DNA of 64,000 bases from Vairimorpha necatrix (GCA_036630325.1 CP142731.1:806001-870000); one strand, 5' to 3'; counted from the first letter of the stretch, positions 14,441 to 61,915 are shown. Program-made: numbers and translations. Notes: generated from the sequence alone by a model not told the origin.

Positions 14441-14537
14441 TTAGAAATTTTTATTTTAAATTTGTATACAATGTTCGTTTGATCACATTATTAAAAAAGT
14501 CAATATTGACACATTTCTGTATTTTTATAATCTTTTT

Positions 14538-16242: not shown

Positions 16243-16882
16243 AAAATTTTTATTTTTTTATTAATTTTTGTGCTTTGATTATTTCGAACTTTTAAGTAAA
16301 TTATGTCAAAAAAATAAGCAAATTTAAAGACTTTATATAAATTTAACTTTATAAAAGTAGCAATAAATCAAATCGAATTTGGTTTTAGCTTTTAGGTAAT
16401 ATGTAGATTAAATATTGCTTTAGTGCACCTTTTTAAAATTCATATTTATGTTAAAAAAAATTAATGACAAGCTTGGGAGGGACTAGTAGTTACGCAAAAA
16501 CTGTATCAACTTCATAATCCTTTGTTTTGAGAATTCCGATAGCATTTTGCAACTAAAATCGACAGTAGATCGCTTAATAAATGCTACCATCTCATATTGC
16601 TCTGCAGTAAAACTAAAAACCTTCTTGAAATCTTTTTTGAACATATTTAAAAAAAAAATGAAATTGAAATCGTATTTGTCCAGTTTTAAAAATAGATATA
16701 AATTCAAAAATGTTTTTTATATTTTTCATTTGATTAGATGTTAACATTTTAAAATTTAAATAGCTTAAACTTTTCTTGTAGATCACAAATTTTATTGCCA
16801 CAGTTTCATGCACATGTGTTATTCAGAGTTTTTCTGTATTTTTTTGATATTGCTAAGGACCATGGCGTTTTTTATGAAAAAT

Positions 16883-17464
16883 TCAGTTTTTTGACATACC
16901 ATGTTTACGATATGGACTTTCTCCGCAGATCTTCTTTACTCTGATACGTGTTTTTATTTTTGAATCTCTATTATATTTAGCCGAATAAACATGCACCCAA
17001 GTTTTTCCCATTTCCTCATAAGCAATCCTAAAGATAATGTTCCCTTTGCCCGTATAATTTTTAGTAAATGCAATTCTTTGAGCGGCATCGAAATGTTCTT
17101 TAGATCTAATAATAACCTTTTCTCCCATTACTAGGATTGGATTATTGTGTTTGTCGACTTCATAAAAATCTTTCACTGATAAATGTCTGTGTTTCAAATG
17201 CATCAATACCCTAAATTTCTCTCTTAAATCATCTTTTCTTCTTGACTTATTAAGACATTGCTTATAATTATCAAAGATTGTTTTCCAATTGCCCTGGCCA
17301 AATTTTTCTATTCCTTCTTTCAATAACTCAATTTCTTCTGGCGTCCAAATTATACCCTCTCTCTTGTCTGCATAAGCGTATAGATCAACTAAATCTTCAT
17401 CTGCTAAAATTTGGTAGTTTTTTTCGAGTTCAAGATTTTTTTCCTGTTCTGTTAGTGCGCCCAT
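16883..17464 (-). CDS. Myb + MC1-like protein, paralog 2
   Basis: High similarity to 14538-15113; CCCC before ATG. Confidence 0.85.
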   Translation of the reverse strand: MGALTEQEKNLELEKNYQILADEDLVDLYAYADKREGIIWTPEEIELLKEGIEKFGQGNWKTIFDNYKQCLNKSRRKDDLREKFRVLMHLKHRHLSVKDFYEVDKHNNPILVMGEKVIIRSKEHFDAAQRIAFTKNYTGKGNIIFRIAYEEMGKTWVHVYSAKYNRDSKIKTRIRVKKICGESPYRKHGMSKN

Positions 17465-18660
17465 TTACGGGGTATTAAAAATAAAGTAAACTTAAAATCT
17501 CATAAATGAAGTACACCTCGTGAAATTTATAATACAAATAATCAAAATATATTTTTGTCTAATGGCGAGTTTTGCAAATGTAGTTTTTTTCAAGAACTAT
17601 TTTTTCCAATTTAATATTAGCTTTAATTTGTTGTAAAATTATAATATTAAATTTTGAACGGGAGTGCTATATATTCATTGGAAATTTTGAGCTGTGTTTT
17701 TCTAAACTAAAAAAATGTATGTTAATGTACCTCTAGAATTAAACGCTGATAAAAAACAAAGAAAGGTAGAAAACCCAAACAGAATTATGTGTTAAATAAA
17801 TATGTTTTTTTACATCGTCCATTATGCCTTTCTATGTATTATTTGATTTTAAAGTAAAGCAGTTTCTTATTATTCATAATTGACATGTTTTCCTTACCTT
17901 TCAAATTTAATATTGCTAGTTTTAACTCACGTTGTATTTTACTATGTAATGAATGTAGTGTTCTATGTTCGAAAACATATTTTAAAAGTCTCCTTCAAAA
18001 TTTAGCATAGCACATGCCTCGATTTGGTTGGATAGTAGTATAAAAATATTTTTGCCAATTGTGTCTAGATCATTAGAACCGTTTTCAGTGCATAATTTAA
18101 TTTAATTTTTTAAATCTATAAAGTTTTACTTGTGTCTGCTTTTTATATCTTTACGCAACTTTTTTTGTTAATGTACTAATGTAAAATATTTAAAAAAAGT
18201 TAATATATGCTTTAAAATTATTGAAATTTAGTACCACGTTAGCTTCATAATTTATTGTTTTAATAATGTAATTTATTATTACATATCATGTAAAATAGAC
18301 AGTAGATCGTTAAAATTTAATACTTTATAACTTTGTTATATTACTAAATTTTCTTTGAAGAGACATCTGGTCAACGTTCTAATGATGAATATCATATAAT
18401 CTAAAAAGTGATAAATATAGCTAGAGTGTTGCGATGTCGCCTAAAATAAATAAAATACATGATTTTTATATAGACAAATACATTGGATCATATTAAAGGT
18501 TTTAAAATTACATCGGGGTTAAAATTAAAATTTTTAAATTTTTTTTGTATAAAAAAAATTTTATTGGCACAGTTACCTACACAAGTATATATCAAAATTA
18601 TTGTAACACCTGTGGGTCCTCCAGCGTTTGTTATGTTTTAAGAGCCTTACACAGATTATT

Positions 18661-19236
18661 TCACATATTTTCTTTGCGGCGAGGGCTTTCTCCGCAAATT
18701 TTCTTTACTCTGATACGTGTTTTAAATCTTGAATCTCTAATATATTTAGCCGAATAAACGTGTACCCAAATTTTCCCCATTTCCTCATTAGCAATCCTAA
18801 AAATAATATTCCCTTTGCCTGTATAATTTTTAGTAAACGCAACTCTTTTAGCGGCATCGAAATGTGCTTTATCTTTATAAATAACCTTTTCTCCCATTAT
18901 TAATATTGGATTATTGTATTTGTCAACTTCAAAAAAATCTCTTTTATATTGTTTTCTGTAACCACTTTCTTGAATTAATTTCCAAAATTTTTTTGCTAAA
19001 TCATCTGGTCTTCTTAATGGATGAAGATGCTGCTTATAATGTTCGTAAATTTTCGACCATTTTCCCTGGCCAAATGTTTCTGTTCCTTCTTTCAATAACT
19101 CAATTTCTTCTGGTGTCCAAATTATACCCTCTCTCTTGTCTGCATAAGCGTATAGATCAATTACATCTTCATCTGCTAAAATTTGATATTTTTTTTCGAG
19201 TTCAAGATTTTTATCCTGTTTTGTTAGTGTGCCCAT
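18661..19236 (-). CDS. Myb + MC1-like protein, paralog 3
   Basis: Paralog; ATG at 19236 follows CCC and aligns with the paralog starts. Confidence 0.85.
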   Translation of the reverse strand: MGTLTKQDKNLELEKKYQILADEDVIDLYAYADKREGIIWTPEEIELLKEGTETFGQGKWSKIYEHYKQHLHPLRRPDDLAKKFWKLIQESGYRKQYKRDFFEVDKYNNPILIMGEKVIYKDKAHFDAAKRVAFTKNYTGKGNIIFRIANEEMGKIWVHVYSAKYIRDSRFKTRIRVKKICGESPRRKENM

Positions 19237-19693
19237 TAACAGGGTAAAAAATACAGAAAAATGTAATATTAAATAGATGTTATTTATGTTATGATTTTTA
19301 TGAGACAAATAATTAATTTTGTCTTGTTTAAAGTTTATGTTTAAGCAATTGAAACTTTTTAAAGGATTTAGAATTTTTTACAAATATATAATATTGGTTT
19401 TTACTTAATATATTCATTTTTTTTTCTTTGCTTTAATGTTTTGATTTCTATTTAGTTGTATTACTATTGTTTCAAACACAATGTCAGTTACTTTTACTGC
19501 TTAATTTATAACTTTAGTAAAGAGAAAACAAAGAACGTCCAGAGATCTTCATAGAAATAGAAAAAAATTATTAAATATATTCATTCAACGCCTAACATAG
19601 AACTTTATAAAGTCGTGTTTTTGGATAGGATTTTGGCACTAGAAATGCCCTTTTATAATACAAGATGATTTTTCGACATTTTTGTTGTATATC

Positions 19694-20454
19694 GGTGCCC
19701 CCATCCAAGAGACATAAAGCAAGCATGCTATAAGATGACTGCATTCAAATCCTATGTACTAAAAACTTTTCAGTTGTTATAATGCAAATGTATTTACTCA
19801 GAGGATGCAAATGTCCACGATGATCATTAAGTTGATTCAATGAAACTTGTATACGTCCAGCCATAAGTTAATTAGCATCTAGTGTAGAAACGTACCTCAA
19901 GATTAAAAAACAGTATCCGCTTCGTGGTTATTTCTCGATCTTTTTAAAGTATTTGCTGAGTACAGCCTAGTCGGAGCACGTGGCTTGGTACTTTGTGGGG
20001 ATTTTAGATCTAACTAAGAGTCTAGACGAAGAAAAGCAATATAAGGTCCGTGTACCTATCCTACAGAGTCCTTTAGGACGGTGGCCGAAACAGAAGGGAG
20101 ACTAGTAGTCAACTTAGTCCAATAAAAATGCTCTACTGTGTTGTTAAATGCAAGCAAAGTGTTTGAGATGCAGATGATTGTAGAATTCTTCGGCTATTAT
20201 GATTATGTCTTTTTTCGGGCTAGTTAAACAAATCTGTTATTCCAGTTGTAAAGACCCTCTTGACGTGAAATTAGAAGTAGATGGAAAATATTCTTCCGGA
20301 GCCAAAGTATAATGAAGAGGCGGAGCTTGCTGCGCTAGCATTTAATATGGAGTGAGTTTTAGTAGCCAAGAATCATACAGTGACAGTTGGATAAAGATCA
20401 CACCTAAATCTCCCGATTCCTATTAAGGGGGTAGGCCCATCTTACTTGTAAAAA
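19694..20454 (+). mobile_element. Diverged full-length copy of the tRNA-headed SINE-like element
   Basis: Collinear similarity to reverse complement of 38254-39061 (e.g. ATCATTAAGTTGATTCAATGAAACTTGT, ATTAGCATCTAGTGTAGAAACG, GGTGGCCGAAAC, GGAGCCAAAGT, CTTACTTG-A tail); starts GGTGCCC; degenerate ~14-bp TSD. Confidence 0.8.
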
Positions 20455-22494
20455 TTTTGTTTAAATATCGCTTTAGCAAAATCAATAGTTTAAAGTCTGC
20501 AATTTTTTTATTGTTTTTTTCACACTCAAAAAATAATGATTCGTAAAGTAAACAGCACATCAAAAAAATATGGCTTTAATGATATTTCTTCGAGTAATTT
20601 AGTCTAATGTTAACTCCATATTTCGTCGTTTAGATATTTCTTGTAACTTAGTTCGATATTGCTGGTCATCTAAAATCGACGATAGATCCTTGAAAACAGA
20701 TATAACATCTTTTTTGAACTTGATTTTGCTTAATCTTTCGAAATACGACAAGCATTAGAAAGCCTTAGCACATTGTTGCAGATAGTTGGTATTAATAAAT
20801 GTCAAATAAAATATCTAAAAGAGAGGTTGATTAGTGTCAATTTCTATATATGGTTCAGTAATGGTCAATAATAATTAAGGTGGGGTCTGGGAGTTGTTCT
20901 TCATGTCTATATTTTTTTTCATTTTTTTAGTTAATATTAAAGTTCAATTCTAATTATAGTATTATTTGATTGCGATAAATAAACAAATTATTGTATAAAA
21001 AATTTGTTTCAACTTTATGACATACTACAATGTTTCTATCTACAAACACAAGTCAAAAATTCTTTTATTATGTCATATCTTTGTACCGTGTCTATTCTCA
21101 CTACACACTTAAAAGCTTCGATTAGAATCCTCAAGGAAGCATGTATAATATAAGAGCCTCAAAATTGCTTTTTGTCACAATACGACGTAGAAATCGGCCT
21201 GTACTGATCAGGAATGCTACTCAAAAACTCAATGAACGGATGTCTGAGGAAACTCTGAAGCTGTAGTTAGAAGAACTGAGTGGTTTCTGGGAAAAATAAA
21301 AGAATGATAAAGGTATTACGCCCGAATATTCAAACATGTTGATGACAAAATTGATACATGGTAATTCCAAAATTATGTTGTAAATGTTTATTCTAGAAAA
21401 AAATATATTTCAACATTTTTTATTTGTGTTGTCTAGTGTATAAATTTAGATAATTTTATGATACTTTATTAATATTTTAAAAATCTAATTTCAAATTTTT
21501 GCACTAAAATTTTTATCGGTTTATATTATTATTTTTCTTTATAAAAATTTTGCTAATTATATTAAAGCCAATTTTCCTTGCAAAAAACTTTAGACAAACT
21601 GTTTTAAAATTATCTTTATATTTATTGATGTTTTCCATATTTAAAACTAGACTTCTATATTAATTTAGCGTTTTTTTGGATTTTTTTATTCGAAAAGGAC
21701 TGATAAAAAAGGATGAATTATGATTTATTTTTTTTTATAACATTTAAGTGAAAAATATATTGAATTGGTAATGTTTAAAATCATATCTAAGTTTTGTGAG
21801 ATTTTTATTTCAAATTAAGAACATTTTTTTTATTTCACGTTCTTTCTAAGAGGTAAAAATTTAAAATGAATTTTTTTATAATGTTTTATATTTTTTTGTG
21901 AATTAAAAAATTCTAAGAATTAATTCTGAATATATTCTGGTATTGAGTTTTAGAAAAATAAACATTTTAACAAGAAATTAACATTATTGTTTACGCAACA
22001 TAATTATTAAAAATTACAAAATTTTATATTGTAACAACACGTTGAAAGACACACCATCCATATGGATGACGCAAATTTTCTTGTTCGGATCAACTTCGCG
22101 CACTTTACTTGATGCAATTTTCTTTGATTTTTGCCAAAAATCATAAGTAATTAATAGAACAATTAGGTTGTATGTTTAATGCTGCAAGTATAGCAATTGA
22201 TAGATTTGACGACTTTGCTTTGCAAAAAACTATAAAAGAATAAAATCAAAGGATTTAATTTGTTAAGAGTAAAATGTCTATTTGATTAATAAATTTTTTT
22301 TTAATATTTATCTTTTGGGTAAATTTAAAAAATGGGGAAGTGACTGAACGGGAAATTTTAAAATAGCCCTGACAGCCAACGTGTTAATAAAAAAGTTATT
22401 TTTAATATTAAAGCACAGAAAAGAAGATCAAAAAAAATTTTAAATTTTTTAATAAAAAATATATAAAGATGGAGATATTTACTGCAGGCTCTTT

Positions 22495-23070
22495 TCATCG
22501 GCCTTCTCTACGATTCGGACTTTCCCCCCAAATTTTATTTAGTTTTATAGATTTTGCGCAATTTGGATCGTTAACATATTTAGCCGAATAAACGTGTACC
22601 CATTTCTTCCCCAATTCCTCAAAAGCGATTCTAAAAATAATATTCCCTTCGCCCGTATAATTTTTATGTTTAGCAAATTTAGATGCCGCAACAAAAGGAA
22701 CTCTACATCTATAGATTACTTTCTCTCCTTTTACAAGTATTGGGTTATTGTCTGCGTCGACTTCATAAAAATCTCTAATTTCTTTTTTTTTACAATTAAC
22801 CCAATCATCCATTGATCGTGCTTTATCTTTTAAATCCACAGTTCTTCTCAACGGATTATAAGCATCTCTTTCATCATTTAAGATTTTAGTCCAATTTCCC
22901 ATACCAAATTTTTTTAACCCTCTTTTTAAAGCCTCTACTTCTCCCTGGGTCCATTTTACCGCTGTTCGTTTTTTTTTGTATGCGTATAAATCCACTATAT
23001 CTTCGTCTGCTAATATTTGGTAATTTTTCTCAAGTTCTTCATTATTTTCTTCTTTAGTTAGTCTGGCCAT
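22495..23070 (-). CDS. Myb + MC1-like protein, paralog 4
   Basis: KWTQGEVEALKRGLKKFGMGNWTKIL..RRTVDLKDK (telobox-like); ATG 23070 after CCC. Confidence 0.85.
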   Translation of the reverse strand: MARLTKEENNEELEKNYQILADEDIVDLYAYKKKRTAVKWTQGEVEALKRGLKKFGMGNWTKILNDERDAYNPLRRTVDLKDKARSMDDWVNCKKKEIRDFYEVDADNNPILVKGEKVIYRCRVPFVAASKFAKHKNYTGEGNIIFRIAFEELGKKWVHVYSAKYVNDPNCAKSIKLNKIWGESPNRREGR

Positions 23071-24486
23071 TAAAAGGGTTAAAAAAAATAAGAGGTTAAA
23101 CAAATGCACATGTATGACACATATGATGTGATTATCATTAAAAATATTTAATTTTTATTTTGAATAAAAATTTAACACACAAAAGCAAAAGTTTTAAATA
23201 AAAAAAGAGGTATTTTTTCCTCTAGAATATGTCAAAATTTAAATAAGAAATATACTTTAGTATTATGATTTGCAATGCAATGTGTATACAAATATAATAT
23301 TTGAGCTGTTTTGTTTATCTCTGTGTCAAATTGTAAATTAGATTAAATCGTTAATTAATAACTGACGCAAAAAAAGAAAAACAAACAAAATCTTAAGTAT
23401 TCATTTACATAAAATATAAGAATTTTATGAAAAAAGTGTTAATATATTTCGTTGAGTTATTATAATTATTGTCGCGCGCCCGGCGCGCGACCGCGCCCAG
23501 TGCGCGACCGGAAGAATTCGTGAAGAAATTTTACATAAACATATTGTATGTTCAATCTAACTTCAGAATTGAGGATTAAAAGTGTATTATTAACAAGGTT
23601 ATATACAAAAAGATCTTATTTTTGTAGTAACACTTTACTAACGCCCACTTACATCATGAACATAAACAAAATACAAGATTTTTTAAATTAAAGGTAGATT
23701 TTTGTCAAATTGGGTTAAGCTTTTTTTAATTTTATAAGCGCATTAAGATTATAACAAAGAGATCTAACGGATAACTCATTAAGCTATTTATTTATATGCA
23801 TATACATAAAAAAATTACAAATTTAAGGGTACATTGTATTCAATTATTTCTTTTCATAATGCTTAATTAGCTCTATTTTTATGGTTTGATTTTTATAGAT
23901 CAGCTTAGAAGATTCTTAGAATTTAATTAAACTTCAATTTATAAGAATTTTTATAAACAATAAAAATAAATTAAAAGAAACATTTATATATAAACTAAAG
24001 TAATTTTTTATTACATTAAAAACTCTTAACACAAGTTTTGATTATCTTGGAAAAATAAATTAAAAAAATAAAAATAAGATGTTGTGCTCAAATATAAAGT
24101 TTTAGAAAAAATACCTAAATTTGAGTTCACAAAAATTCATTTTAGTTAATTAGGTACCCATAGCTGTGTAAAGATTACATTTTAGACGCCCGTTCAATAA
24201 ATAGTCTACGAAGGTCATTTGAAAATTATATTTCTAGTACGTTGGTATTTGCATTTTTACACTTTATTCTTTAAAATAACGCACATCATATATATATTAT
24301 AAAATAAATTATATTTAAAAAAACGGGCTTAGTGATATCTTTTTAAACAGATAACTTTCTTAATTCAAAAACATACAATTTTCATGAATAAAACATTAAA
24401 TGTAGTTTTCAATGTATAAATTATATAAAAAGATCGTAAACAACTAAAATTTATAGTAAAACAAATAGTAAAATTTATCTCAAGGC

Positions 24487-25707
24487 TCATTTATTTAATT
24501 TTTTAACCAGATTCATTGATATAATTTCCTCCTTACCTTCGTATTTTAACCTTAATCGGTTATTCGATAAAATTTCTATTACTTCCCGTGGTTCACTATA
24601 AAAAGAACTCAATTTTAGTTTTTTTGTTTTCGTATTAGTGTCGAAATCTTTTTTTACAACCACTAAATCTCCAATAGAAAAATCGTTGATGGAATTATGA
24701 ACACATTTTCTGTCCAATCGAGCCAAATATTTTTCATTACATACTGCATCACTTCCTGTAATCGTGTTTACAGTTGTTTCATCCTCATCAGTGCAATCAT
24801 CATCATTCTCCCTTAGACATGTATTGTATCCAAGGCTTCCGTACCATAACTTATAGGGAGACTTCTTTGTAGCAGAATGTACAGCGGTATTATAGTCATA
24901 AACAACTGTATTAATGACCGCTAGCCAGTTCTTATTGTTAAAACCTTTTTCGCAAAGATGTTTTTGCAGGTAGCGAGTAAGGGTTTGATTAAACCTCTCG
25001 ACTTGTCCTTGACTCTGGGGATGACGAGGTCTGCCATGAATAAGCATTATTTTATTTTGTTTACAAAATTCAACTAATGTTTCATTTTTAAACTCTTTGC
25101 CGTTGTCGCATTGAAGTATAGCAGGAAAGCCTAACGTTTGAAATTTGTATTCTAACCGTGATACGACTTCAGCGGCGGTTTTAGTTTTCAAAGCAGAGAT
25201 AAAAGCATATTTAGAAAATACATCTATTGCTGTGAGTATCCAACTAAAACCATCATTTTCATCACTATAAGTCCTCATATCAACAAGATCAATAATAAAT
25301 CTTTCAAAGGGTCTTTTAGCGACGATGTGCTTGAACTTTTCTTTTGTTTTAAGAGGTTGTGCTGTCATGCATATATTGCATTCACTGCAAACCTCCCTTA
25401 CAATACACCTAGGTATACTGAAGTATTGTTCCTTACACTTATCATAGAGACGGTTCGCGCCATAATGATGCTGCCGATGAAGTCCTTGGACCTCTATTTT
25501 CATAGCTTGGACCATAGTACTTACAAATACTCTTTTGTGCCAGCCCCCCACATCCTTCAAGAAAAGAATGTTATCCACAAGAATAAAACTTTGGGATTTC
25601 TTCTTTAGCCTATATTTTAAATGTTTGTCACATTCTAGGCTAACCTCATCCCCTTTGAGTATTTGGACAAGCCGATCATACTCAACTTGGTCTTTTACTT
25701 CTTTCAT
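24487..25707 (-). CDS. Integrase-type (rve) DDE transposase
   Basis: HHCC (HRQHH..CNIC), IIDLVDM, LQCDNGKEF, PQSQGQVERFNQTL; uninterrupted. Confidence 0.92.
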   Translation of the reverse strand: MKEVKDQVEYDRLVQILKGDEVSLECDKHLKYRLKKKSQSFILVDNILFLKDVGGWHKRVFVSTMVQAMKIEVQGLHRQHHYGANRLYDKCKEQYFSIPRCIVREVCSECNICMTAQPLKTKEKFKHIVAKRPFERFIIDLVDMRTYSDENDGFSWILTAIDVFSKYAFISALKTKTAAEVVSRLEYKFQTLGFPAILQCDNGKEFKNETLVEFCKQNKIMLIHGRPRHPQSQGQVERFNQTLTRYLQKHLCEKGFNNKNWLAVINTVVYDYNTAVHSATKKSPYKLWYGSLGYNTCLRENDDDCTDEDETTVNTITGSDAVCNEKYLARLDRKCVHNSINDFSIGDLVVVKKDFDTNTKTKKLKLSSFYSEPREVIEILSNNRLRLKYEGKEEIISMNLVKKLNK

Positions 25708-25775
25708 AGAGGGTAAAGAAAAAATTTTTTTTAAAATGATGAATCTGTACTATAATTATTTGCAAAATATTTTAG

Positions 25776-25851
25776 TCAACCAGCTTGGCACAGTGGTTGT
25801 TATGGTCAATTGTTACTTTGAAGGTCGTAGGTTCGAATCCCACGTGTTGAA
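25776..25851 (+). ncRNA. tRNA-like (pseudo-tRNA) sequence with Pol III A and B boxes inside the transposon
   Basis: A box TGGCACAGTGG, B box GGTTCGAATCC, partial acceptor stem TCAAC/GTTGA; anticodon arm poorly paired (TTGTTAC loop, Asn-like). Confidence 0.6.
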
Positions 25852-27084
25852 AATTTATGTAGGGGTCATAAAAAGATAGTTGAATAATCATAAACAGTTA
25901 ACATACAGAATACATAACTTGTATAATTACAAATTTCAAATGTTAAAAATTCTGTTAGGTTAAAAAAATTAGGAAAAAATCCGGTCGCGCACTGGGCGCG
26001 GTCGCTCGTTGGGCGCGCGACAATTATTAATGATAGTTACCTATCTATCTACTTTCAAAATATAAGAGGTTAATTTAATCTTTAAGCTCTTTTTTGTAGG
26101 TTTCAATCTTAATTTTTGTAGGCTTATTTGACTATTTATATACTAAAAATGCACTTAATGAAAAGACTTGATAGTTATTATTGTGCGTACTTCTGGTAGA
26201 AAATTTTCTAATATTTTTTAAAAAATTTTATTCGATAAAACATACTTAAGAAAATTTTCAAAGTCGATTTTTCTAATTTCAACCTCTGTCTATAAAACTG
26301 AAAAAACATAAACACATAAATATTAAAGTCGAAAAAACAAAATGGCAACAAATATAGCTTGAAAGTGTTTTAAAATAATTTTTACCGCTTGATATTAGCA
26401 TAAGGGTATTTTTACATTCCACAAAACCTCTTTCTCTGATTTTTAAATTAGGTTAATTATAGGAGAAAATCAGAACTAAAATGAAAAATGTAGTAAAAAA
26501 TTATTTTTCGATTAGGACATTCTTTAGCTAGTAGCAATATATACGTTCACATTCATGAATATGGTTATATAATAATTAAACATTGACTTCAAGTGATATT
26601 TTTTTGTTTTTAAAAATGATATTGTTTGTATAACTAAGTTAAAGATCAATTGTACTTATTAAAAAACAAATGTCAAAAATCTTTTAGTCCTGAAATTTGA
26701 TCAAGTACGTTGGCTTTTTAAATCCCGACTGTAAAATTTTTTAATGATTTTTAAAATAAGTAAAATCTCTTGGGTATGAAAATCGACTATATTAAGTTTT
26801 ATTGATACAATCTATAAGTCAAAGGTTTATTTTATTAAGTAAAAAATTTTAAAAAGTTATGCTTTTAACTATTTAAAACGTTTACAAATATCACTAAACG
26901 TGAAAATTTTGATGTTTCAAGTTAATCAAACCAAATTCTCAACGACACCTTTTTTTACGATCGGAATTCGATGTTTCCCTTTTTATTTCGCGATTTTTGT
27001 AATTTTTTTACAATTTTGCTAAAAAATTTGCTAACAAAAAAAAGATGAAATGTTATATGGTTTATTAAATTAGTTTCTATTGAT

Positions 27085-27660
27085 CTACATACCATCTCTA
27101 CGGTATGGACTTTGCCCTGCTAATTTTCTTACGTTTATAGATTTACGCTTAGCTGACCCATTATTGTATCTGGCCACATAAATGTGTATCCATAACTTTT
27201 CGTTTTCTTCATAAGCGATTCTTATAATAATATTAACATTTTCCTTAAAACTTTTAGAAAAAGCGCAATATCTTGCTGCTTGATGGGGATGTTTACATTT
27301 ATATAGTACCTTTTCCCCATTTACACATATAGGATTACTTTCATTGTCAACCTCCCAAAAAAATTTATGTGGATGTTTGGCGCCTGTTGGTCCATTTTCT
27401 ACACATCTATATTTATCACACAAATCTTTCATTCTTCTTTCTGGTCTAAAGTCATCTTTGTAAAATTCTAGAATTTCTTTCCATTTTCCTTTACCAAATT
27501 TTTTTATTCCTTTTTTCAATGTTTCCAGTTCTTCCTGTGTCCAAGTAATTCTTTTTCTCTTGTCTGCATAAGCATATATACCTTCTAATTCTTCATCCGT
27601 CATTGTTTCTGGTTTTATATGTAATTCAATAATATTTTCATTTTCTTTAGGTGTGTCCAT
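27085..27660 (-). CDS. Myb + MC1-like protein, paralog 5 (most diverged)
   Basis: KRKRITWTQEELETLKKGIKKFGKGKWKEIL..DLCDKYR; C-terminal YKCKHPHQAARYCA..IIIRIAYEE..IHIY. Confidence 0.85.
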   Translation of the reverse strand: MDTPKENENIIELHIKPETMTDEELEGIYAYADKRKRITWTQEELETLKKGIKKFGKGKWKEILEFYKDDFRPERRMKDLCDKYRCVENGPTGAKHPHKFFWEVDNESNPICVNGEKVLYKCKHPHQAARYCAFSKSFKENVNIIIRIAYEENEKLWIHIYVARYNNGSAKRKSINVRKLAGQSPYRRDGM

Positions 27661-27715
27661 CAACAAGGGAAGAAAAAGTAGTTAACAATAAAAAAATATA
27701 TATATTCGAATTCAT

Positions 27716-29362: not shown

Positions 29363-31547
29363 TTATTTTGTCCATGGATTTTCTTCTTCAATTTTAACAA
29401 CAATATTTTTACTGATTTCCAGTGGGGCTGATATTTCTTCATTTTCAGTTATATTTGATTTTTCAGGTTCCAGATTTTTTTTCATACTAAAATATAATTC
29501 ATAACAACTAGACAAGGTAAATGACTTGATTTTAAGTTCATTTAGCCCAAATAAGCTTGAAATTCCATTTTGCTCTTTTTCATTTACCGTTATTAATTTC
29601 TTATCCTTTTCTAAATTAATTATTTTATCTTTTAGATTTATTGTTATAATAAGACTATTAATCAATTTATCAATATTGTCTCGGATTTCATCCCCAAGCA
29701 GAAGAAGATTTTTCTCATCAAATTCATTTAACAAATTCTTTTTACTATCAAAAATTGATACAATGGATTTGTTGTTAGAATTTTGTAATTTATTTAATAA
29801 ATTAGAATATTTTTGGCAAATTTTATTTAAATTAAAAATTTGAAAAAAGTGTATAAATTTGGATCTAGTCACAGATACAAAAACAATGCTCCATTCTCTT
29901 GTCAGACCTCTTTTAATTTTATACATGCCGTATTTTATAGGTTCAATATTTTTATAAATATTTATATCTTTTTTACTTAAATCAATATTCATATTTTGCA
30001 TTATTTCTTCATACGCGTTAATTATTTTTGACTCGTTTACCTCCTTACCATTTTCTGAAGAAACGTCATAGTACTTTTCAGTATTATGAGATATGCTAAA
30101 TTTCAAATGAGAAATTTCTGACAGGTCCGAGTACAAAACCTTTTGCTCCTTACAAAATTTATTTAGTAACTGCGTGTACAAGTCTTGAATATTTAGAAAT
30201 TTATCAGTGTACATCGATTTCATTCCACTTATCACAAAATCATTATTTTCTTTATAATTGTACGGAGGTGGGGTACTTTAGACCCCCCCCTTTGAAGCGC
30301 TTCAATTTTTTTTTCGAACCCCAAAATTGAAGTGCAAAAAAAAAGAGGAGCAAGAAAGGGACAAAAATTACTAAGCACTTATGACATTAAAAACAATAAA
30401 TAAATATATATTTATGTACACAATTATATTTTAATACAAGTTTTTACAATAATATAAACCAATAAGCATTTTTTGCCCTTCTGATTTTTTAGAATTGGGG
30501 ACAAAAACGCTCCCCTCTGAGAGTGTTCACTTTATAATTTTGAACCCCAAAAACGAAGTGCAAAATAAACGAGAAGCAATCATTAGTACTCAAATTACTT
30601 GCATCTTCAAACAGTAAAAACACCAAATAAATATATATTTGTATTCGAAATTTAATTTAAAAAAAGAATATAACCATAAAACTATATAATTCTAAATAAC
30701 TTAACATATTTAAATTAAATTTTTTGATTTAACAATCTGTATAGATCGTTGAACATTTATTTAAATTTTCTTATATAAATAATATTTATAATTTTAAGTG
30801 TTGGTTTATTATTAAAGTAGATTTTCTTCAAAAATCTACTTTCATAATAAACCAACACTTAAAAAAAATTGAAAAAATAAGAAGGGCAAAAAGACACAAT
30901 ACTTCAAATGGTTATTATAAATAAATCTAAAATTAATTTTTGTATAAGAGCATATGTTTATTTATTGTTTTTAATATCATAAGTACTAAGTAATTTTTGT
31001 CCCTTTCTTGCTCCTCTTTTTTTTTGCACTTCAATTTTGGGGTTCGAAAAAAAAATTGAAGCGCTTCAAAGGGGGGGGGTCTAAAGTATCCTTCACCCTA
31101 ATTGTACATATTTTTAATGGCTGTTTTGAGACAAATATCTGTAATCCAAGGATCTTTATTCATGATCCAACTTTCTAAATGTGCTATTTTTGCCTTTTCT
31201 AGTTCTTTATTTTTTTGCTCTTCCTGTTCAATAACTTTTGATAGGTTAGTTTCAATATGTAAAATTTCTTCATTTACTTGATTTTCTAGATCATTTAATT
31301 CTTTAAATAGCTCGATATAGGAATTTGAAGCATGGTCAAACATTTCCTTTTGCTTGGCGCTTAATTCTACTAAGTTTAATAAATTCGTGTCATTCCATTC
31401 AGTGTCCCTTGGAAGTTGAGTCGCGCGAGATAAAACATCTGAGGACTTCTTAAATACGACGTCGAGGCATTCAAAATAGTTTCTTATGAATTCAATTTTA
31501 GTTTTCAATGTTTGATAATAATGAATTAACCTTTTGACCTCATCCAT
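29363..31547 (-). pseudogene. Coiled-coil/BAR + PH-domain gene (Slm1-like architecture) interrupted by a MITE
   Basis: Removing 30264-31098 and one TSD joins ..IKNMYN to YKENNDFVISGMKS.. in frame (446 aa); PH-like YGMYKIKRGLTREWSIVFVSVTRSKFIHFF. Confidence 0.8.
30264..31098. mobile_element. Mutator-type MITE (family A, copy 2)
   Basis: Long TIRs; perfect 9-bp TSD TAATTGTAC at 30255-30263 and 31099-31107. Confidence 0.93.
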
Positions 31548-31745
31548 TTTTTTATTTACAATGAATTAATTATTATTGTTTTACATTAAAATGATGTGAC
31601 ACAATATGAAACGAGATACAATAAATAATAAATAAAATAATGTAATGACTTGGTACAAGTCATTACATTAGACTAATAAGATCCTAATATATTTTTTTTT
31701 TTCAATAGGTAAAAATTTTTAAGTTGTATTTTTTTTATTTTTACA

Positions 31746-36456: not shown

Positions 36457-37305
36457 TTACAAAAATACATTAAATACTTCTGAATCTACATATGGTTTTT
36501 TTTGGTTGTCACGATTCTTAATTCTATTTATCAACTTGATTCTTATCAGATAAAACGCTACTAGTAAAGTGTAACAACATTCCAATATTAATAATAAACT
36601 TAAATTAATAATTTCATGAAAAAATGACAAAATTATTATAGTAGTCACACCAAGTGCCCACATTGTTCCTATAAAAATATAAGAAAAGTGGTAGATTTTT
36701 TCCTTTTCTATTTTAGTACTGCACAATATAAAATCAACAGCTAAAGCTACAAATTTTACGAGATGAAATGCGTAAAATTGATTCCGCTCATTTGAGAATA
36801 AATCTTGCATAACTACGACCCAGATTCCTATCAAAGAAGCTTTTTTACATGTATCTATCATTTCTTCTATAATGTAAAGATTTATTTCTAAAAAATCTAG
36901 ACCTGCTCTTTGATTATACAAATGGTAAACTTTGTCACTGCTTTGATTTATAGTACAAACAAGAAATATTAAAGTAATACAATGTACAACAATAGATAAT
37001 TTTACTTCTGTGGTGTATTCACATGTAAAACCTATAAAAATAACAAATATTAAAGAAAAAATTCTTACAAGTTGTATTTGTGTGCGGTATCCTAAACTTT
37101 TTATATAATAAAAACCAGAATAAAAAGCAATTTCCATTATAAACAAGATTTTAGAAAAGGTTAATAGATATTTAGAAATTGTATTGACACACTTACTTGA
37201 ATCAAATGAGTTTACATTACTTAATGTTGATTTGGTTATTAGAACATCTAAAATTAGACTAGTGAAATATAATATAGTGTATGTAATGTACTTTAAATGT
37301 TTCAT
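36457..37305 (-). CDS. Multi-pass membrane protein, paralog of 57047-57897
   Basis: About 7-8 hydrophobic segments; shares YHLYNxRAGLDFL and KYLLTFSKIL. Confidence 0.8.
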   Translation of the reverse strand: MKHLKYITYTILYFTSLILDVLITKSTLSNVNSFDSSKCVNTISKYLLTFSKILFIMEIAFYSGFYYIKSLGYRTQIQLVRIFSLIFVIFIGFTCEYTTEVKLSIVVHCITLIFLVCTINQSSDKVYHLYNQRAGLDFLEINLYIIEEMIDTCKKASLIGIWVVVMQDLFSNERNQFYAFHLVKFVALAVDFILCSTKIEKEKIYHFSYIFIGTMWALGVTTIIILSFFHEIINLSLLLILECCYTLLVAFYLIRIKLINRIKNRDNQKKPYVDSEVFNVFL

Positions 37306-38199
37306 TTGGGGATAAATTGAAAAAAAAAGTTTGTTTGATCATTTTTTATTATAAAAAATTTAGGATACTAATAAATTTTTAAAAAGACAAAAATATGTAA
37401 AAATTTTTATATAAAAGTATAAAGCATATTAAATTTGAGAATTAAGTTTTTCAAGGCAATTTTAGAACATGACATAATATTTATATATCTAGTTTTAGAA
37501 GAGTTTATTTGTTTACTATAGACGTCAAACTTTCCTATAAACACGTCGATTAAAGAGAGCTGTCAACGATCTAATTGCATCAAATTAGACAATCTCTTAA
37601 AAGATTGAAAATAGAGAAAAACTTTCTACATATTATTTATTGTTACATAAAATTCTTACTATTTTTATAAACATTTTTTTATAGGACTTACTATTTCAAC
37701 AAATAGGAATAAATTTAGAAACAAATTAGGGCTTGATTAAATATTACGGGGTCTGTTCCATTATTTTACCTTCCCCAACATTATAAGAATACTTTTTAGA
37801 TATTTTTTTGATTTAATGTGCTCTCTAAGCGGCTTAAAATATATTTTTGTATTTTTTTTAAATGTACAAATATGTAATTCTTACATCTATTAATTTTTAT
37901 CATGGAGATCGATAAACCTTTGATCATAGACATAGTGATAGGCACATATTTATTTTTTTACTACGTTGTAAAAGACTAAATCTTTTCTTATTCATTTTTC
38001 TATTAACAAAGCCACCATTTACCACAAATGACTTCATTTGTTTGGAAAAATAAGCTAAAAATTTCAAGAATATTACATTATAAGTCTGACAACTTGGTAT
38101 ACGAATGAAATTAGGTTGCATTCGGATTTTTGTTTAACATTAAGTCTTTGTTTATCTTCACCATAAACATAAAGTGTCAAAGCCTTCCTCTTAAGTAAT

Positions 38200-39770
38200 T
38201 GTTAAAAACAATTGTAAGTTAAGGGTTAAATTTATTAAATCTATATTCTTAACTTTTTTTTTTTTTTTTTTTTTTTTCTTTGCAAGTAAGAGGTAGGGAG
38301 AAACCTTACATAGGGACCAGAGGGATTTGGGTGTGATCCTTTTCCAACTGGTACTGTGAGATTCTTACTCACTAAAACTCCCTCCGTATAACTTGCCGGT
38401 GCAGCAAGCTCCGCCGTATCCATTGGACTTTGGCTCCAGGAGAACACTTTCCATTTATACCTCAAATCGCGTCCAGAGTGACCTCACAGCGGATATACTT
38501 AACGGGCATGGTTATCTATAACCCGAGGAGAGACATCATCGTACTGACTCAAAGGTCCCTACAATCATCTGTATCGCACACACGGCTCCTTACACGACCA
38601 CATCCCCAGCCCGGCATTTTTATTGGACTGCGTTGACCACCAGTCTCCCACTAGTTTCGGCCACCGTGTTACAGAATCATGTAGGATAGGGTCCACGAGA
38701 CCTTCTATTGCCCTACTTCGTCTAGTCTCTTAGTTAGCTCTAGGATCCCACTCTAGAGTGCACCAGCCATGGGCTCCAACTAGGCCGTACCCATTAGATA
38801 CTTTTATGTATCATTAAGTCACCAAAGGGCGATACTGCTTTTTGGCCTTGAGGTGCGTTTCTACACTAGATGCTAATCCCCTTGTGGCTGGACACACACA
38901 AGTTTCATTGAATCAACTTAATGATTACCGTGGACATTTTCATCATCTGAGTTGTTCCAACTGCATCATAGAAAGTAGAAACAATTTGGTGCCCCTGGGA
39001 CTCGAACCCAGCCCATTGGTCAATGAGAACATCCCTTCGACCACTCGGCCAAGGGCACCTCTCTATATTCTTAACATCCCCGCGCTAAATTTAGAATTGG
39101 GCGATGAAATTATCTACATATTTCTACGCCTACTACTTGGCTCTAAAAATAAAAGTGCATTTTTATGTTAACTAACCATGGGCTGCGCTTTACTCCATCG
39201 CGTCTTACAATCCCTTCTAGTACTGGTCTTCGAGGTACTTTCTTTCCCTGTTTTAATACATAAAGTCTATGGGCATGTGATCATTCGTAACCCATGTCTT
39301 CCCAACAATGAAATCGGATTTTTTCCGTCTATCTCATTCTTCGACTATAACACAGTTTCTTTTTGATTTTCTTCTCTTTTTAAATCTCTCTGTATTTTTG
39401 AACACTACTGGTTCAGCTATCTTGCCACGATAGCTTAAATGTGAATAGTGGGATTACCACTACACTCAATCTCGACAACTCTTATGCCAGATCTTATTAC
39501 AGTCAATACTGTTTCTCCATAGCTCTTCATGGCTACTTTACGTCTTCACCAATCCGGGTCCCTCGACTGATGCAAGCCACCACCTTCTCTTCTGTTAGAC
39601 AACCAACCATCCCCATTCTAACCTAGACTGCATTTTTTTTACGTCTCATGCTTCGACGGAACTTACGACCTCTTCTTTTGTTTTTGTTTGAGTTCAATAA
39701 TTTTATTCTCCACCATGTTAAAGACAATTATAAGTTAAGGGTTAAATTTATTAAATCTATATTCTTAACA
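38200..39770 (-). mobile_element. Non-autonomous short-LTR (TRIM-like) retroelement, 55-bp LTRs
   Basis: LTRs 39716-39770 and 38200-38253 (+39076), TG..CA, 2 mismatches; 5-bp TSD GTAAT; PBS TGGTGGAG and PPT GCGCGGGGA on minus strand; decayed interior. Confidence 0.85.
38254..39061 (-). mobile_element. tRNA-derived SINE-like element (~808 bp) inserted in the TRIM 3' LTR
   Basis: tRNA head 39059-38987 (GGTGCCC/GGGCACC acceptor stem, TGGCCGAGTGG, GGTTCGAGTCC); A24 tail at 38254-38277; 14-bp TSD TCTATATTCTTAAC at 38240-38253 and 39062-39075. Confidence 0.9.
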
Positions 39771-41536
39771 GTAATAAAGGTTTTTTTCATTTTAAGAATA
39801 TAATCTGAAAGCACCAAATATTTCTATAGTTACAAAACCATAGTTTAACTCAAATAGCTTAACTAAAAGCATTGGAGATTTATGAATGATTAACAACACA
39901 GATCATAAGCCAATATCTTGAGCAAATTGGGGCGTTAATTTAGGGCTTTTTTCATTGGACGAAGGGACTTCGATAACCCGTGAGCTTTTGTGGCGCACAA
40001 CAAGGCAACTTTGAATCCTATAAGTTTACTTTTTATAAGATCTATTAATATATATTATCGACTTTTCAATAACGAGGCAAGTGCAATTTATAAAGTTATT
40101 AAATGAACGTTTCAATGACACTAAAATATTATCACCTGTAATTTTTACGCTTCTATGGTCGCAGTCATTTTTCTTTTACGTTTTTAATCATTAACAATCT
40201 TTTTTTATACTATTTTCTGATCAAATAAATTTTTTAAATGATATCTTTTCGATTACAATTTTTAAATGATTTCAATAGATTAAATAAACCTACTACTTTT
40301 GGCAGTAGACTAAAATTTTCGCTGCATGTTAGATCTTAATTGTGGTTAATCTATAAACAAATAGAATTATAGTTATTTATTTTTTACAACTAAAACTTGC
40401 ATGTAGTAGTTCAGACATACTCTTTAATTCAAATTTAGAATTTAGTGATATACTTAAATGTTTTATGTAGGCAGCTGCTTTATGAAAACTTTTCGATATT
40501 ATATTACAAGCAAAAAGCTAAAGGTCTTGTGTTTTTAGCCATTAAATGTCCGAGCAGAGATTATTTAATACCATAGCTCATAATTTGCTATGTGGTTTTA
40601 TAGATTTTCTAGATCGGTGATTATATAAGATCTTTCGATTTATGTAAATAAAATAAAAAGCGGTTCTTATTGTTTCAAATTTAACTTTTTTTGTAAAAGT
40701 AAATGTAAAAAAGGTGTGTATCATGTATAAGTTAAAATTTAGTATCGAAAAAAGGTTTACATACTTAAATTTAGACTCAAAAAATTCATATAGAGTCTTT
40801 TACTAAATAATTTTTTAGAAGAGAATAAACCATATTTTCTCAATCGGATTAAATCATTTTAGTTTAAAAATTTTCAGCTTAAAAGATTCCTGCAAGTTTT
40901 TATGCTTTTTTATAAAAGATGCGTCATTTCATCCAACATCATTTAAAAGTACAGAAATTTATCGTTTTACACGCCAAAAAATTGATTTGGATACACTAAA
41001 TATAGTCAAATAGATTATTTGACAATAAAATCCTTGATTATGTAATAAACTACATATTAAAAAAGTAAAATAATTAGTCAGGTATACAACTTTTTGCTTC
41101 TAATATTATATCTTTAATTTTTTTATTTTTTCTATTAAGATAGGAAATTTTGTAAAAATTATAAGGAAAGTTTTGCAGTGAAGATAAAAAATAAATCGTA
41201 TTAGATCATAAAAAAAGATAGTTTTTATAGCTACAAGCTCAAGATTAAATTGATCGACATAAAAGCAAACTTCATACAGAAGTTTGGCCTTAGGGAAGTT
41301 AGATATTTCGTACAGGATAATAACTTGTCATGAATAAAACATGAAAACACACTTTTTGTCTATATGTTTTGCCCCGATTTTTTATGAATATAACGCTAGA
41401 ATCGTATAATATAATCATTATTGAAAATTTAAAAACAAACAATAAAAAATATATAGATTTGTATATACTTGAAGTATTAAAAAAAAAATCGAAAATGCTG
41501 TTAGAAATGATATAAATTCTTGAAAATTAAAGTTTA

Positions 41537-43180: not shown

Positions 43181-43263
43181 CTCTCAGTAGCTCAGTGGCA
43201 GAGCGTTCGACTGTAGAATTTGTAGATATCGAATGGTCACAGGTTCGACTCCTGTCTGGGAGA
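43181..43263 (+). tRNA. tRNA-Tyr(GTA) with 11-nt intron (43217-43227)
   Basis: Acceptor CTCTCAG/CTGGGAG, anticodon stem TTCGA/TCGAA, CT-GTA-G, T-loop GGTTCGACTCC, downstream T-run. Confidence 0.93.
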
Positions 43264-46191: not shown

Positions 46192-49100
46192 TGTAGGGTT
46201 TAGAACCCTTAATAAATAAATGGTTAACATGGCGAACACAAGGATGAACAGGGAAACAAGAGAGTCCCGTAGTCAAGAGGCTAGAACATTAGAGAAAGAG
46301 GCAATTAGGATAGATAAGAGACTAAAGTTAATATTGAAAGTTGAGAAAGTTGAGTGGAAAGATGTTATGGATTTGGCATCTGCGAACTTGCAGGATTATA
46401 TTTTTGAAAATTTTTGTGACGGAAGGAGCAGTTGGGAGGAAATTTATAAAGGCTTACAAAAAGGAGCAGAATTTGAGAGAGAGTCAGAAGAAAGACAAGA
46501 AATGATTAAAGAGATTATGGATAAAGTGTTGAAAGAGTTTAGGGAAGAAAGAAAAGAAAATCTTAGGATGTATAGGAAAAGAAGAGAAATCAGAGAAACT
46601 ACAAAATGTTTTATATGTAAGAAAGAAGGGCATTACGCTAGAGAATGTCATGAAAGTGTAGCTGGTAGGGAAAAATATAAAATTAAAAAGGAACATGTTT
46701 TACAGAAAGAACCAATTATCAACAATGAAGGGAAAAGATGTAAAACAGTAAATAAGTTAGAAAATTTAATTGAAAAGTATCCGGAAGTTTTTAAAGAATC
46801 AGAAGAAAAGATAAAATATCTCACAGGAGAGAAGTGTCCAATAAATACTAAGCAAGGTGAAAAGGTTGTGAAAAGAGGGCAGAATGTGCCATACTACCTT
46901 AGGGTGAAATTTGAGGAGTACTTGAATAAGTTGAAAATAGAGGGGTTATAAGACGTTCCAAAAGTGAGTGGAGGAGTCCAATAAGAGCACTTGAAAAACC
47001 AAATGGGGACGTAAGATTGGTAAGCAATTTGATGGCGTTAAACGATTTGGTTGACAAGGACCCGTACTCACTACAGTTAATTAAGGATATTATGAGAGCC
47101 ACACAGGGGTCAAAAGTATTTACGGTTATCGACTTAAAAGAAGGGTTTTATCATATTGAGATTGAGGAGCACCATAAGCACAAAACAGCATTTGAAGTGA
47201 ATGGTCGAGTATACGAATGGAATAGTATGGTTATGGGGTTTAAGAATTCGCCTCATATAATGCAGAGAGTAATGAACAGAGTTTTAGATGAATTCAGAGG
47301 TAAAGGCGTGGAAGTATATATGGATGATATAGTTATTCATGGTAAAGACGTAAGAGTGCATGACGAGTTACTAGAGAGGGTAATTAAAAAGTTTAAAGAG
47401 TGTGGGTTGAGAATAAACCAAACAAAGATACAATACAAAAAAGATGAGGTGATGTTGCTGGGAGTAACAATTAATGGGGAGGTCATGGGACCGAATGAGA
47501 TTAAAAAGCAGGAGGCATTGGAATATAGAAAACCTGAGAATGTTAGAGAGTTAAGAAGATTTTTAGGACTAACTGGTTGGTTTAGAGACTTTATTCCCAA
47601 CTATGCGTATAGAACAGTAAGGCTTACTGAGGCTTTAAAGAAAGATGTTAAGTGGAATTGGACGGAGGATATGGAAAGAGCCTTTGAGGATATGAAGCAA
47701 GGCTTGAGAGATATGAAAAAGTTGAAGATTCCGGACGGAAAAAAGCTATTTAGAGTAAGAACTGATGCGTGTGATACGGGGATCGGAGCAATTCTATTAC
47801 AAGAAAATAAAGAGGGTGAGTGGATTCCGATACAATGGGCATCGAAAATGTTGACTCCTACCGAGCGAAGATATACGATAAGTGAGAAGGAGATGTTGGC
47901 GGTGTTTTTTGGAATAAAGAAGTTTGAAAGTGATTTGAGAGGAAGGAAATTTCATTTGATGACGGATCATAAAGCATTAGCAGAGATCAGAAATAAGCCA
48001 TACTTCAATAATAACAGAATAAACAGATGGGTAGAACAGATACAAGAGTTTGACTTTACAATAGAGTATGTGAAAGGGGAGTTGATGACAGATGCAGATG
48101 CGTTAAGTAGGCAGTATGATCAGGTAGAAGTTTCGGATGAACAAAAAGAAAAGGACAACAAGAGAAAAGAAGTGATCGAAAAACAAATTTTGGGAAAAAA
48201 GCAGAAACATATTAAAGAAAAGGACGGTAAACAGTATTGGGAATTTTCCACAGGTGAGGTGAAAGAGATATTGAGCCTAGATAGTAGAGAACATGAAATA
48301 ACAAGAGTACATGAGGAGTTAAACCATAGAGGTGTCAAAGGCACTTATTATAACATTAAACAAAGATGGTATTGGCCTGGTATGAAAGATCATATTAATA
48401 ATGTAATTAAGAATTGTGAAATATGTGGGATTAACAATAGGAAAAACACAGGAGGATGTGATTTCGTAGTAACTAGAAAGAAATTGGAGAAAGTGGCGTT
48501 GGATTTAATGGACATAGGTGGAGAGAATAGGTATGTGTTACTGGGTATTGATTACTTTACTAGAAGGTTGTGGGGTTCGAATTTGAGATGTAAAGAGAGT
48601 AGTGAAGTTATAGAGGTATTACAAAAGTGGATAAGGGAAGATGGATTTCCAGAGGAATATGTGACAGACAACGGAAAAGAGTTTGTAAGTAATAGATTTA
48701 AAGAATGGTGTAGTATTAATGATATTAAACATAGGAAAGTGGGCTTAGAAGCTCATAGGAGTAATGGTAGAATCGAGAGATGCATCAGAACTATAAGAGA
48801 GACATTGATAAAGCAAAATGATGGGAATATTTCTGAAAAGATAGAAAGAGCAATCAAAGGATATAATAATACACTACATACAGCAATAAAATGTACGCCG
48901 ATGGAAGCGTGGAGAGATCAAACTGCTGAAGTTATAATTGAAAATGATGAAAATGGAAAATATGCTGGTCGGTTCAAGAGAAGACACAGAGAGACATTTA
49001 CAGTAGGCCAAGAGGTAAGAATCGCTAGAAGAGAAAATTTAGGTACACGTGCGAAAACAGACAAGGGAAGATTCACGGGTCGCGGAAGGATCGTAGCTAT

Positions 49101-49265
49101 AAGTGAAAATGATTCATATATTGTGAGACTACTGGATGGTAAAATTGTTAAAAAGAGGCATTATGATTTGAAAGAGATAAGGAAGAGTTGTTTAGAAGAT
49201 GGAGAGACTACCCGTCTGGAGGGGGGATGTAGGGTTTAGAACCCTTAATAAATAAATGGTTAACA
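46192..49265 (+). mobile_element. Ty3/gypsy LTR retrotransposon with identical 38-bp LTRs
   Basis: TGTAGGGTTTAGAACCCTTAATAAATAAATGGTTAACA at 46192-46229 and 49228-49265; TSD TATGA; PBS TGGCGAACAC; PPT GGAGGGGGGA. Confidence 0.95.
46229..49239 (+). CDS. Gag-RT-RNase H-integrase polyprotein, one frameshift near 46935, no protease
   Basis: CFICKKEGHYAREC; GVIRRSKSEWRSP; YMDD; TDACDTGIGAIL; HHCC; TDNGKEF; SNGRIER. Confidence 0.85.
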
Positions 49266-61287: not shown

Positions 61288-61873
61288 GGCTAAAGAGAAC
61301 TAACAGAACCGCCTTTGGGGTATTCATTTTATTTCCGAACCCCAAAAACGAAGTGCAAAAAAAGGAGGAGCAAAAAAGAGACAAAAACTATAAGCACTTA
61401 TAAAATTAAAAACAATAAATAAAGAAATAATTAGATACAAAAATGATTATAAATAAATTTTTGCAATTATCTTAATTTGATGCGTTTTTTACACTTCCGA
61501 TTTTTTAATTTTTTTAATTGTTGGTCTATTTAAAAAGAAACATTTATAGAAAATCTCCATTTATAATAAACAAACAATAAAAAAAATAATTACTACAGAG
61601 AAATAGAAAATTAAAATACACATTTTTTAATCTAAACTGTTTTTCTTAAAAAATTACATATTAAACGTGTTAAATTAATATGAAATACATAATTTAATGG
61701 AGACGTCCTTTTTTGAATATAATACTATATATAAATATTATTAAATTGGTTTTTTATATATAAGAATGCTTGTAATTGTGAGCCAATGTTTACAACTCAT
61801 TTTTTTGCACTTCATTTTTCGATTTCGAAAACAAATTGTACACCCGAAATGCGGGGCTGTAAGTGTCCCTGCT

Positions 61874-61875
<2 letters not shown>
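61288..61875. mobile_element. Mutator-type MITE (family A, diverged short copy 3)
   Basis: CGAACCCCAAAAACGAAGTGCAAAA..GGAGGAGCA TIR motif; 9-bp TSD TTATATATA on both sides. Confidence 0.75.

Positions 61876-61876
<1 letters not shown>

Positions 61877-61912
<36 letters not shown>
61877..61912. repeat. (TA)18 microsatellite
   Basis: Direct reading. Confidence 0.95.

Positions 61913-61915
<3 letters not shown>

Follow-up and report, generated by a model that had tools for sequence, protein, structure and literature searches.

What is the A-tailed unit that interrupts a short LTR in this DNA, and by what route did it arrive there? An earlier note on the sequence had described a long SINE-like element with a tRNA-like head at 38254-39061, and we found that element, with its parts as they had been placed, on the minus strand (positions are those of the window, by which we mean the whole 64-kb stretch of DNA analyzed). 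The feature is most probably a poly(A)-tailed SINE of tRNA origin in the genome of a microsporidian, where the enzymes of a LINE would have copied it via target-primed reverse transcription. It combines a tRNA-like head with boxes, a lack of coding capacity, an A tail with duplications (TSDs) on either side, and multi-copy dispersal; at 808 bp it exceeds the usual length of a SINE (<~600 bp).

The element at this site, copy 1, consists of two extra bases, GA (39060-39061), a 73-nt tRNA-like head with 61.6% GC (38987-39059), a 709-nt non-coding body (38278-38986), and an uninterrupted poly(A) tail of 24 A (38254-38277), all on the minus strand. A 14-bp TSD, TCTATATTCTTAAC on the plus strand, occupies 39062-39075 on the 5' side and 38240-38253 on the 3' side. 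In the sense direction the order from 5' to 3' is therefore GTTAAGAATATAGA (39075-39062), GA, head, body, A24, and GTTAAGAATATAGA again (38253-38240). The head was delimited by ARAGORN and by A-box- and B-box-like motifs, and the body by ORF, Rfam, fold, and repeat checks, whereas the GA, the TSD, and the tail were read directly from the sequence. The direct reading upheld the A24 tail and the TSD, perfect over 14 bp, that had been noted before. At the local base composition, the chance of matching a specified 14-base sequence is ~5e-8. The 14-mer has three occurrences in the window (38240, 39062, and 39756), the third of which is at the equivalent position in the partner LTR. The extra GA represents either a short leader that is transcribed with the element or an addition made at the 5' junction; it is missing in the second copy described below, where the TSD abuts the first G of the head.

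The site of insertion is itself informative. Excising the element together with one 14-mer rebuilds a 55-bp LTR that runs from TG to CA and is identical at 53 of 55 positions to its partner at 39716-39770. Since the partner carries the 14-mer once, the element plus one 14-mer is an exact addition. Copy 1 is a true insertion, one base inside a 55-bp 3' LTR, so that the earlier placement "1 bp from the LTR edge" was right, for an LTR that is only 55 bp long. The larger part of the interrupted 3' LTR lies at 38200-38253 on the minus strand and forms a direct repeat (D15) with 39716-39769. The rest of the target (39076-39770, minus strand) comprises base 1 of the same LTR (39076), a 639-bp internal region with 39.1% GC and no ORF (39077-39715), and the 55-bp 5' LTR (39716-39770, TG..CA).

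Taken without the SINE-like element, this target is 749 bp long, has no ORF, and lies on the same strand as the element that interrupts it. A purine-rich GCGCGGGGA adjoins the 3' LTR and a PBS-like TGGTGGAGAA adjoins the 5' LTR (both on the minus strand), and a 5-bp duplication, GTAAT, surrounds the whole (38195-38199 and 39771-39775). In its short direct terminal repeats (TG..CA), PBS-like TGG..., purine tract, 5-bp duplication, absence of an ORF, and length of 749 bp, the target resembles TRIMs. Its 55-bp LTRs, however, are shorter than those of plant TRIMs, which measure ~100-250 bp. A literature search for TRIMs in microsporidia returned only an unrelated review. In a public sequencing run (X2), we observed a contig with a depth of 2.1 that joins 38175 to 39782 via 27 letters, which consist of the two flanks around a single GTAAT; it represents an empty site for the LTR element in a related lineage.

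A second copy of the SINE-like element was found on the plus strand at 19694-20454, ~18 kb from copy 1, bringing the number in the window to 2. Copy 2 is 761 bp long and ~70-74% identical to copy 1, as judged from inverted-repeat pairs I7, I9, and I10, blastn (73.7% over 672 columns), and a MAFFT alignment (531 of 758 columns identical) that spans the first head base to the last bases before the tail. Its TSD is decayed: TTTTGTTGTATATC on the 5' side (19680-19693) and TTTTGTTTAAATATC on the 3' side (20455-20469) match at 12 of 15 positions with one gap, counted by eye. The head is decayed as well, with its boxes lost and no ARAGORN call, the tail is reduced to A5, and the GC content is 38-41%. 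Copy 1 has G/C where copy 2 has A/T in 126 of the 227 mismatched columns, and the opposite pattern occurs in 54, which marks copy 2 as an old insertion that has drifted toward the A+T bias of the genome. Copy 1 appears to be full-length and, given its pure tail and perfect duplication, young.

Both copies (n = 2) start at the same head base, copy 1 with GA in addition. That two independent insertions share one 5' end points to a defined start of the RNA and argues against random 5' truncation. The possibility raised earlier that copies might lack TSDs was not borne out, as both of the copies that were inspected base by base have a TSD together with an A tail or its remnant.

ARAGORN called the head of copy 1 as a 73-nt tRNA-Met(cat). 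The acceptor stem has 7 bp and the T stem 5 bp; in the D stem there are 3 pairs, including a weak one, and the anticodon stem is paired at 3 of 5 positions, with a T as the base after the anticodon. The head also fits the A-box and B-box consensus motifs exactly and at normal spacing. The call and the pattern match agree with the 7-bp acceptor stem and intact A and B boxes that the earlier note had reported. We observed the combined A/B-box pattern at three places in the 64 kb, namely the head, a true tRNA at 43181, and a tRNA-like stretch at 25786. The Rfam tRNA model RF00005 did not match the head, either at E<=1 or at the gathering score, while the true tRNA at 43181-43263 received 59 bits from the same model. 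The head folded more stably than shuffled sequences (z = -3.56). "TRNA-like" is thus a fair description of the head, which is nevertheless not a good tRNA and falls below the Rfam threshold; we interpret it as tRNA-derived and not as a working tRNA. RNase P and RNase Z cleave at tRNA-like arms in established tRNA biology, and with the acceptor and T arms intact, either enzyme might sever the head from the body.

Could the head instead be a working tRNA-Met gene that happens to stand beside an unrelated repeat, or a by-product of LTR reverse transcription in which a tRNA primer was read through? ARAGORN did call a tRNA-Met, and the head adjoins the edge of an LTR, where primer-binding sites occur. 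We regard this explanation as extremely improbable, however, because the TSD encloses head, body, and tail as a single unit, because copy 2 has the same head-to-body junction as copy 1 away from any LTR, and because the head, with two mismatches in its anticodon stem and a T after the anticodon, misses the Rfam tRNA threshold. In the retroviral replication scheme, primer read-through leaves an antisense tRNA after the 5' LTR. The head is in sense on the strand of the LTR element and is located at the 3' LTR, and we rejected primer read-through as its origin.

The other two places with the A/B-box pattern have features of their own. The tRNA-like stretch at 25777-25848 (plus strand) has exact A-box and B-box patterns and no ARAGORN or Rfam tRNA call. 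It lies inside an element at 23463-26029 that is bounded by 50-nt GC-rich inverted repeats (23463-23512 and 25980-26029) and whose minus-strand ORF at 24487-25707 encodes an integrase-core (rve) domain. The one true tRNA of the window, at 43181-43263 on the plus strand, has T6 immediately after it. ARAGORN called it as an 83-nt tRNA-Leu(tag); visual inspection suggests a tRNA-Tyr(GTA) that carries a short intron.

The body had been described as ~710 bp, richer in GC than its surroundings, and devoid of a credible ORF, and our analysis agrees on all three points. It is 709 nt long and has 46.7% GC versus 23.9% and 25.0% in the two flanks of copy 1, and no stop-to-stop frame of the element is longer than 86 aa (antisense), the longest in sense having 80 aa and extending into the tail. 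A Pfam scan of the six element frames gave nothing above noise, with one noise-level match in the frame that reaches the tail, and a protein search with the 86-aa antisense frame returned no match. The element is non-autonomous and has no coding capacity. The suggestion that the body might be a structured RNA found no support: against 20 shuffles per strand it folded no better than the shuffles (sense z = -0.11, antisense z = -1.56). Nor did a housekeeping non-coding RNA emerge from Rfam, which has no family matching the body in a search of 37000-40500. Within the body, a search for an internal repeat or dimer found just one 19-nt pair with 74% identity, and a scan of the element for bacterial-type promoters and terminators gave nothing useful. 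On the sense strand of the element no run of T is longer than four, and the single TTTT, at element positions 685-688, precedes the tail by ~100 nt. Should four T be enough for termination in this organism, polymerase III could stop there.

To gauge the size of the family we used contigs from four public runs (X1-X4 out of X1-X24), taking summed contig depth as a proxy for copy number, to which it is not equal. In run X1, the single-copy flank at 37702-38194 is represented by one 514-nt contig with 0 differences and a depth of 78, which ends at the edge of the repeat. Ten 74-base bins over 38292-39031 had summed depths of 14,488-248,395 in the same run, giving an element-to-flank ratio of about 185-3,200 (the upper figure being 3,176). 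X1 yielded 828 pieces over the whole 2.2-kb stretch, which holds both the SINE-like and the LTR element; 272 of them are >=99% alike, 223 are 95-99%, 162 are 90-95%, and 171 are <90%. Counted over the same stretch, X2 gave 397 pieces, hundreds of them diverged, with an element depth of 404-844 versus ~2 for the flank contig. The TRIM-like element is also high-copy in both runs, and the X1 bins over it had a summed depth of 40,264-154,399. Of two further runs, X3, which is labelled with a different source, gave 22 pieces, among them some that differ at 0-5 positions over 100-300 nt, and X4 gave 7 short pieces; in both, the pieces cover the repeat stretch only and leave the flanks without cover, which proves nothing. 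Two RNA-seq runs contained 0.04 of the query's sequence words. The element belongs to a high-copy dispersed family, which, as a rough inference from these depths, would number hundreds or more copies. A 25-mer that is identical in both window copies had 0 matches in metagenome contigs and viral contigs, and a 22-mer chosen in the same way had 0 matches in metagenome, viral, and genome contigs.

In X1, the depth rises ~tenfold toward the 3' end of the element, as would be seen if copies were truncated at the 5' end or shared their tail with a LINE; X2 has no such gradient. A rise of this kind is expected for LINE tails, and it raises the question of whether we see the 3' portion of something longer, either an autonomous non-LTR element or another polymerase II transcript, with a 5' end made by RNase P or by recurrent truncation. 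The TSD of copy 2 reaches exactly up to the RNase P site, namely base 1 of the tRNA-like head, and the TTTT inside the body would also sit well with this explanation. We nevertheless consider it unlikely. Neither copy extends beyond the head, host duplications being found immediately upstream of it, and the X1 bin over the head (~25,700) is no lower than the neighboring body bins (14,488-49,435). Among the best 24 of 434 loose ends, none had a common sequence upstream of the head. Furthermore, the body holds no coding remnants. The window has 46 ORFs of >=90 aa, and a scan of 30 of them revealed neither a reverse transcriptase nor an endonuclease of the non-LTR type; the other 16 are four paralogues of a Myb ORF that was scanned, frames that overlap genes already covered, and the ORFs at 38818-39168 and 61745-62020. 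The only reverse transcriptase of the window belongs to a Ty3-type element at 47032-49239, in which RNase H and integrase are also present.

The copies might also have arisen as processed pseudogenes, retrocopies that LINE enzymes made in passing from a single cellular gene for a non-coding RNA with a tRNA-like 5' end, in which case the sequence would not be a SINE that propagates itself. Such retrocopies would leave identical hallmarks of retroposition, and the sole Rfam match in 37000-40500 at E<=1 was a weak one of the head to the mascRNA/MEN-beta tRNA-like family RF01684 (28.6 bits, E = 0.006). The match is below the gathering score of 42.5 bits, however, and in our unit it is the 5' end, not the 3' end, that is tRNA-like. 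The body has no Rfam family and a fold no more stable than that of shuffles, and the hundreds of pieces, many >=99% and many <90% alike, are better explained by successive waves from several sources. We therefore think it very unlikely that a single cellular gene gave rise to these copies.

We return to the SINE reading and to how such an element would move. A discrete, A-tailed, RNA-like unit has inserted with a staggered break of 14-15 bp, twice in the window and many times in the genome. The view expressed earlier, that this is target-primed insertion of a non-autonomous retroposon, gains support from the LTR restored at 53 of 55 positions, from a second copy with its own TSD, from the high-copy contigs, and from the microsporidian identity of the host. 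Judging from the motifs, the element would be transcribed by polymerase III, which would start at or just before the head under the direction of the internal A and B boxes, continue across the body (709 nt) and the encoded A tract, and terminate where the flank has a run of T. Downstream of copy 1, a T5 at 44-48 nt past the tail is the first such run; the true tRNA of the window ends in T6. The reverse transcriptase and endonuclease of an autonomous LINE elsewhere, a partner whose existence we infer, would then take the A-tailed RNA, nick the target, and prime on the tail. A nick of the second strand 14 bp away would produce the 14-bp TSD, and this last step is the one that has left its footprint. 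On the sense strand the nick sites read T|GTTAAG and A|TTTTGT. These two target sites are unlike the T-rich sites of L1-type endonucleases, and the partner LINE may thus be of another clade.

The microsporidian origin of the DNA, as assumed earlier, is supported by a gene for trehalose-phosphate synthase at 4706-6082, whose product shares 57% identity with the enzymes of Nosema granulosis and N. bombycis, 54% with those of Encephalitozoon and Ordospora, and 75-78% with those of other relatives. The genes of the window are uninterrupted, and its GC content is ~25%. By protein similarity, the host is a microsporidian of the wider Nosema/Encephalitozoon/Ordospora clade.

Elsewhere in the window, a DUF5098 gene is seemingly split at 29363-31565 on the minus strand, with profile positions 1-140 in the ORF at 31101-31565 and 160-462 in the ORF at 29363-30223; between the halves is a foldback repeat of ~800 bp (30283-31078, pair I3), which has a sister foldback at 15393-16251. 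An LTR element at 688-3732 on the plus strand has 300-bp LTRs that are 100% identical (D3) and an 861-aa ORF with protease and integrase domains and no reverse transcriptase match; it is possibly a young, non-autonomous element from which the reverse transcriptase has been deleted. Five paralogous minus-strand ORFs of 191-193 aa were observed at 14533-15128, 16887-17479, 18656-19251, 22490-23085, and 27080-27675. They are 61-86% alike in DNA, and the one that was scanned has a Myb DNA-binding domain.

How does the element compare with known SINEs? The mammalian Alu, B1, and B2 elements have an internal polymerase III promoter, an encoded A tail on which LINE enzymes act, TSDs of 7-20 bp, and no ORF. 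Foxy, a fungal SINE of ~0.7 kb, contains A and B boxes, ends in an A tail, and is accompanied by duplications. Our element is like Alu, B1, and B2 in its 5' internal polymerase III promoter (present here as motifs only), A tail, TSDs, and absence of an ORF. Unlike these L1-mobilized elements, it is 3-5 times longer, and its target sites are not T-rich at the nick.

Among fungi, the available text of one report gives SINE lengths of 472-900 bp for Foxy (Fusarium oxysporum), MgSINE and mgsr1 (Magnaporthe), and Egr1 and EGH24 (Blumeria/Erysiphe graminis), with copy numbers of tens to a few hundred, 40-160 being reported (PMC5063351). The earlier remark that ~800 bp is "long for a SINE" therefore holds for animals and does not hold for fungi, where 808 bp is within the published range (PMC5063351). 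As described in the same text, the fungal elements are non-coding retroposons like ours, and the 5' ends of Foxy and MgSINE derive from tRNA (PMC5063351). Their hosts are filamentous ascomycetes, whereas ours is a microsporidian, and the comparison is one of descriptions, not of sequences. The X1 depth ratios, which are rough, also suggest more copies here than the 40-160 reported for those elements.

For microsporidia, SINEs appear in the available texts mainly as entries in repeat tallies. In the Nosema bombycis repeat table, "SINE" accounts for 28,669 bp, or 0.18% of the genome, and "unknown repeat" for 14% (PMC3614468, Table 2). A 2026 paper on Glugea lists SINE as a repeat-masker category (PMC13702014), and the SINE total given for an assembly of Microsporidia sp. 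MB is zero (PMC11585130). The term "SINE" is absent from the available text of the telomere-to-telomere MB paper, which describes R4 and L1 LINEs as abundant and also reports GC-rich repeat regions (PMC13174016), and from the main texts, supplements aside, of two surveys of microsporidian mobile elements (PMC4202319, PMC7313128). The 2014 survey employed protein-based searches (PMC4202319), by which non-coding elements are undetectable. The same survey reports 4-15 LINE families per Nosema species (PMC4202319, Table 1), and the LINEs of related genera are possible partners for our element. The "SINE" tallies, as far as the available texts go, are class totals without a family, structure, or duplication described. 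In titles and abstracts, with supplements and subscription journals outside the coverage, we found no described microsporidian SINE family. The element is ordinary in kind, and no such family seems to have been described in microsporidia.

Taken together, the observations can be combined into a bolder proposal, to which we would give less than an even chance as a whole: that this is the first characterized SINE family of Microsporidia, 0.8 kb long, tRNA-derived, driven by polymerase III, recently or still active, and present in hundreds to thousands of copies, and, in its bolder part, that it entered or spread horizontally. The idea of horizontal transfer comes from the 47% GC of the element in a genome of 24-25% GC and from the near-identical pieces in X3 (0-5 differences per 100-300 nt).

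Microsporidia are the textbook case of genome reduction in eukaryotes, yet some of their lineages are swollen by mobile elements. Protein similarity has been the basis of surveys of those elements (PMC4202319), and non-coding retroposons such as the SINE-like element and the element with 55-bp LTRs would then fall into the "unknown repeat" share of repeat tables. The finding leaves the known workings of SINEs unchanged. A SINE with clean footprints shows recent activity of LINE machinery, and its insertions offer presence/absence markers for strain typing and phylogeny. It is also a compact test case for the rules of polymerase III promoters and terminators in these parasites. If the joint reading is true, such elements would make up a measurable share of a reduced parasite genome.
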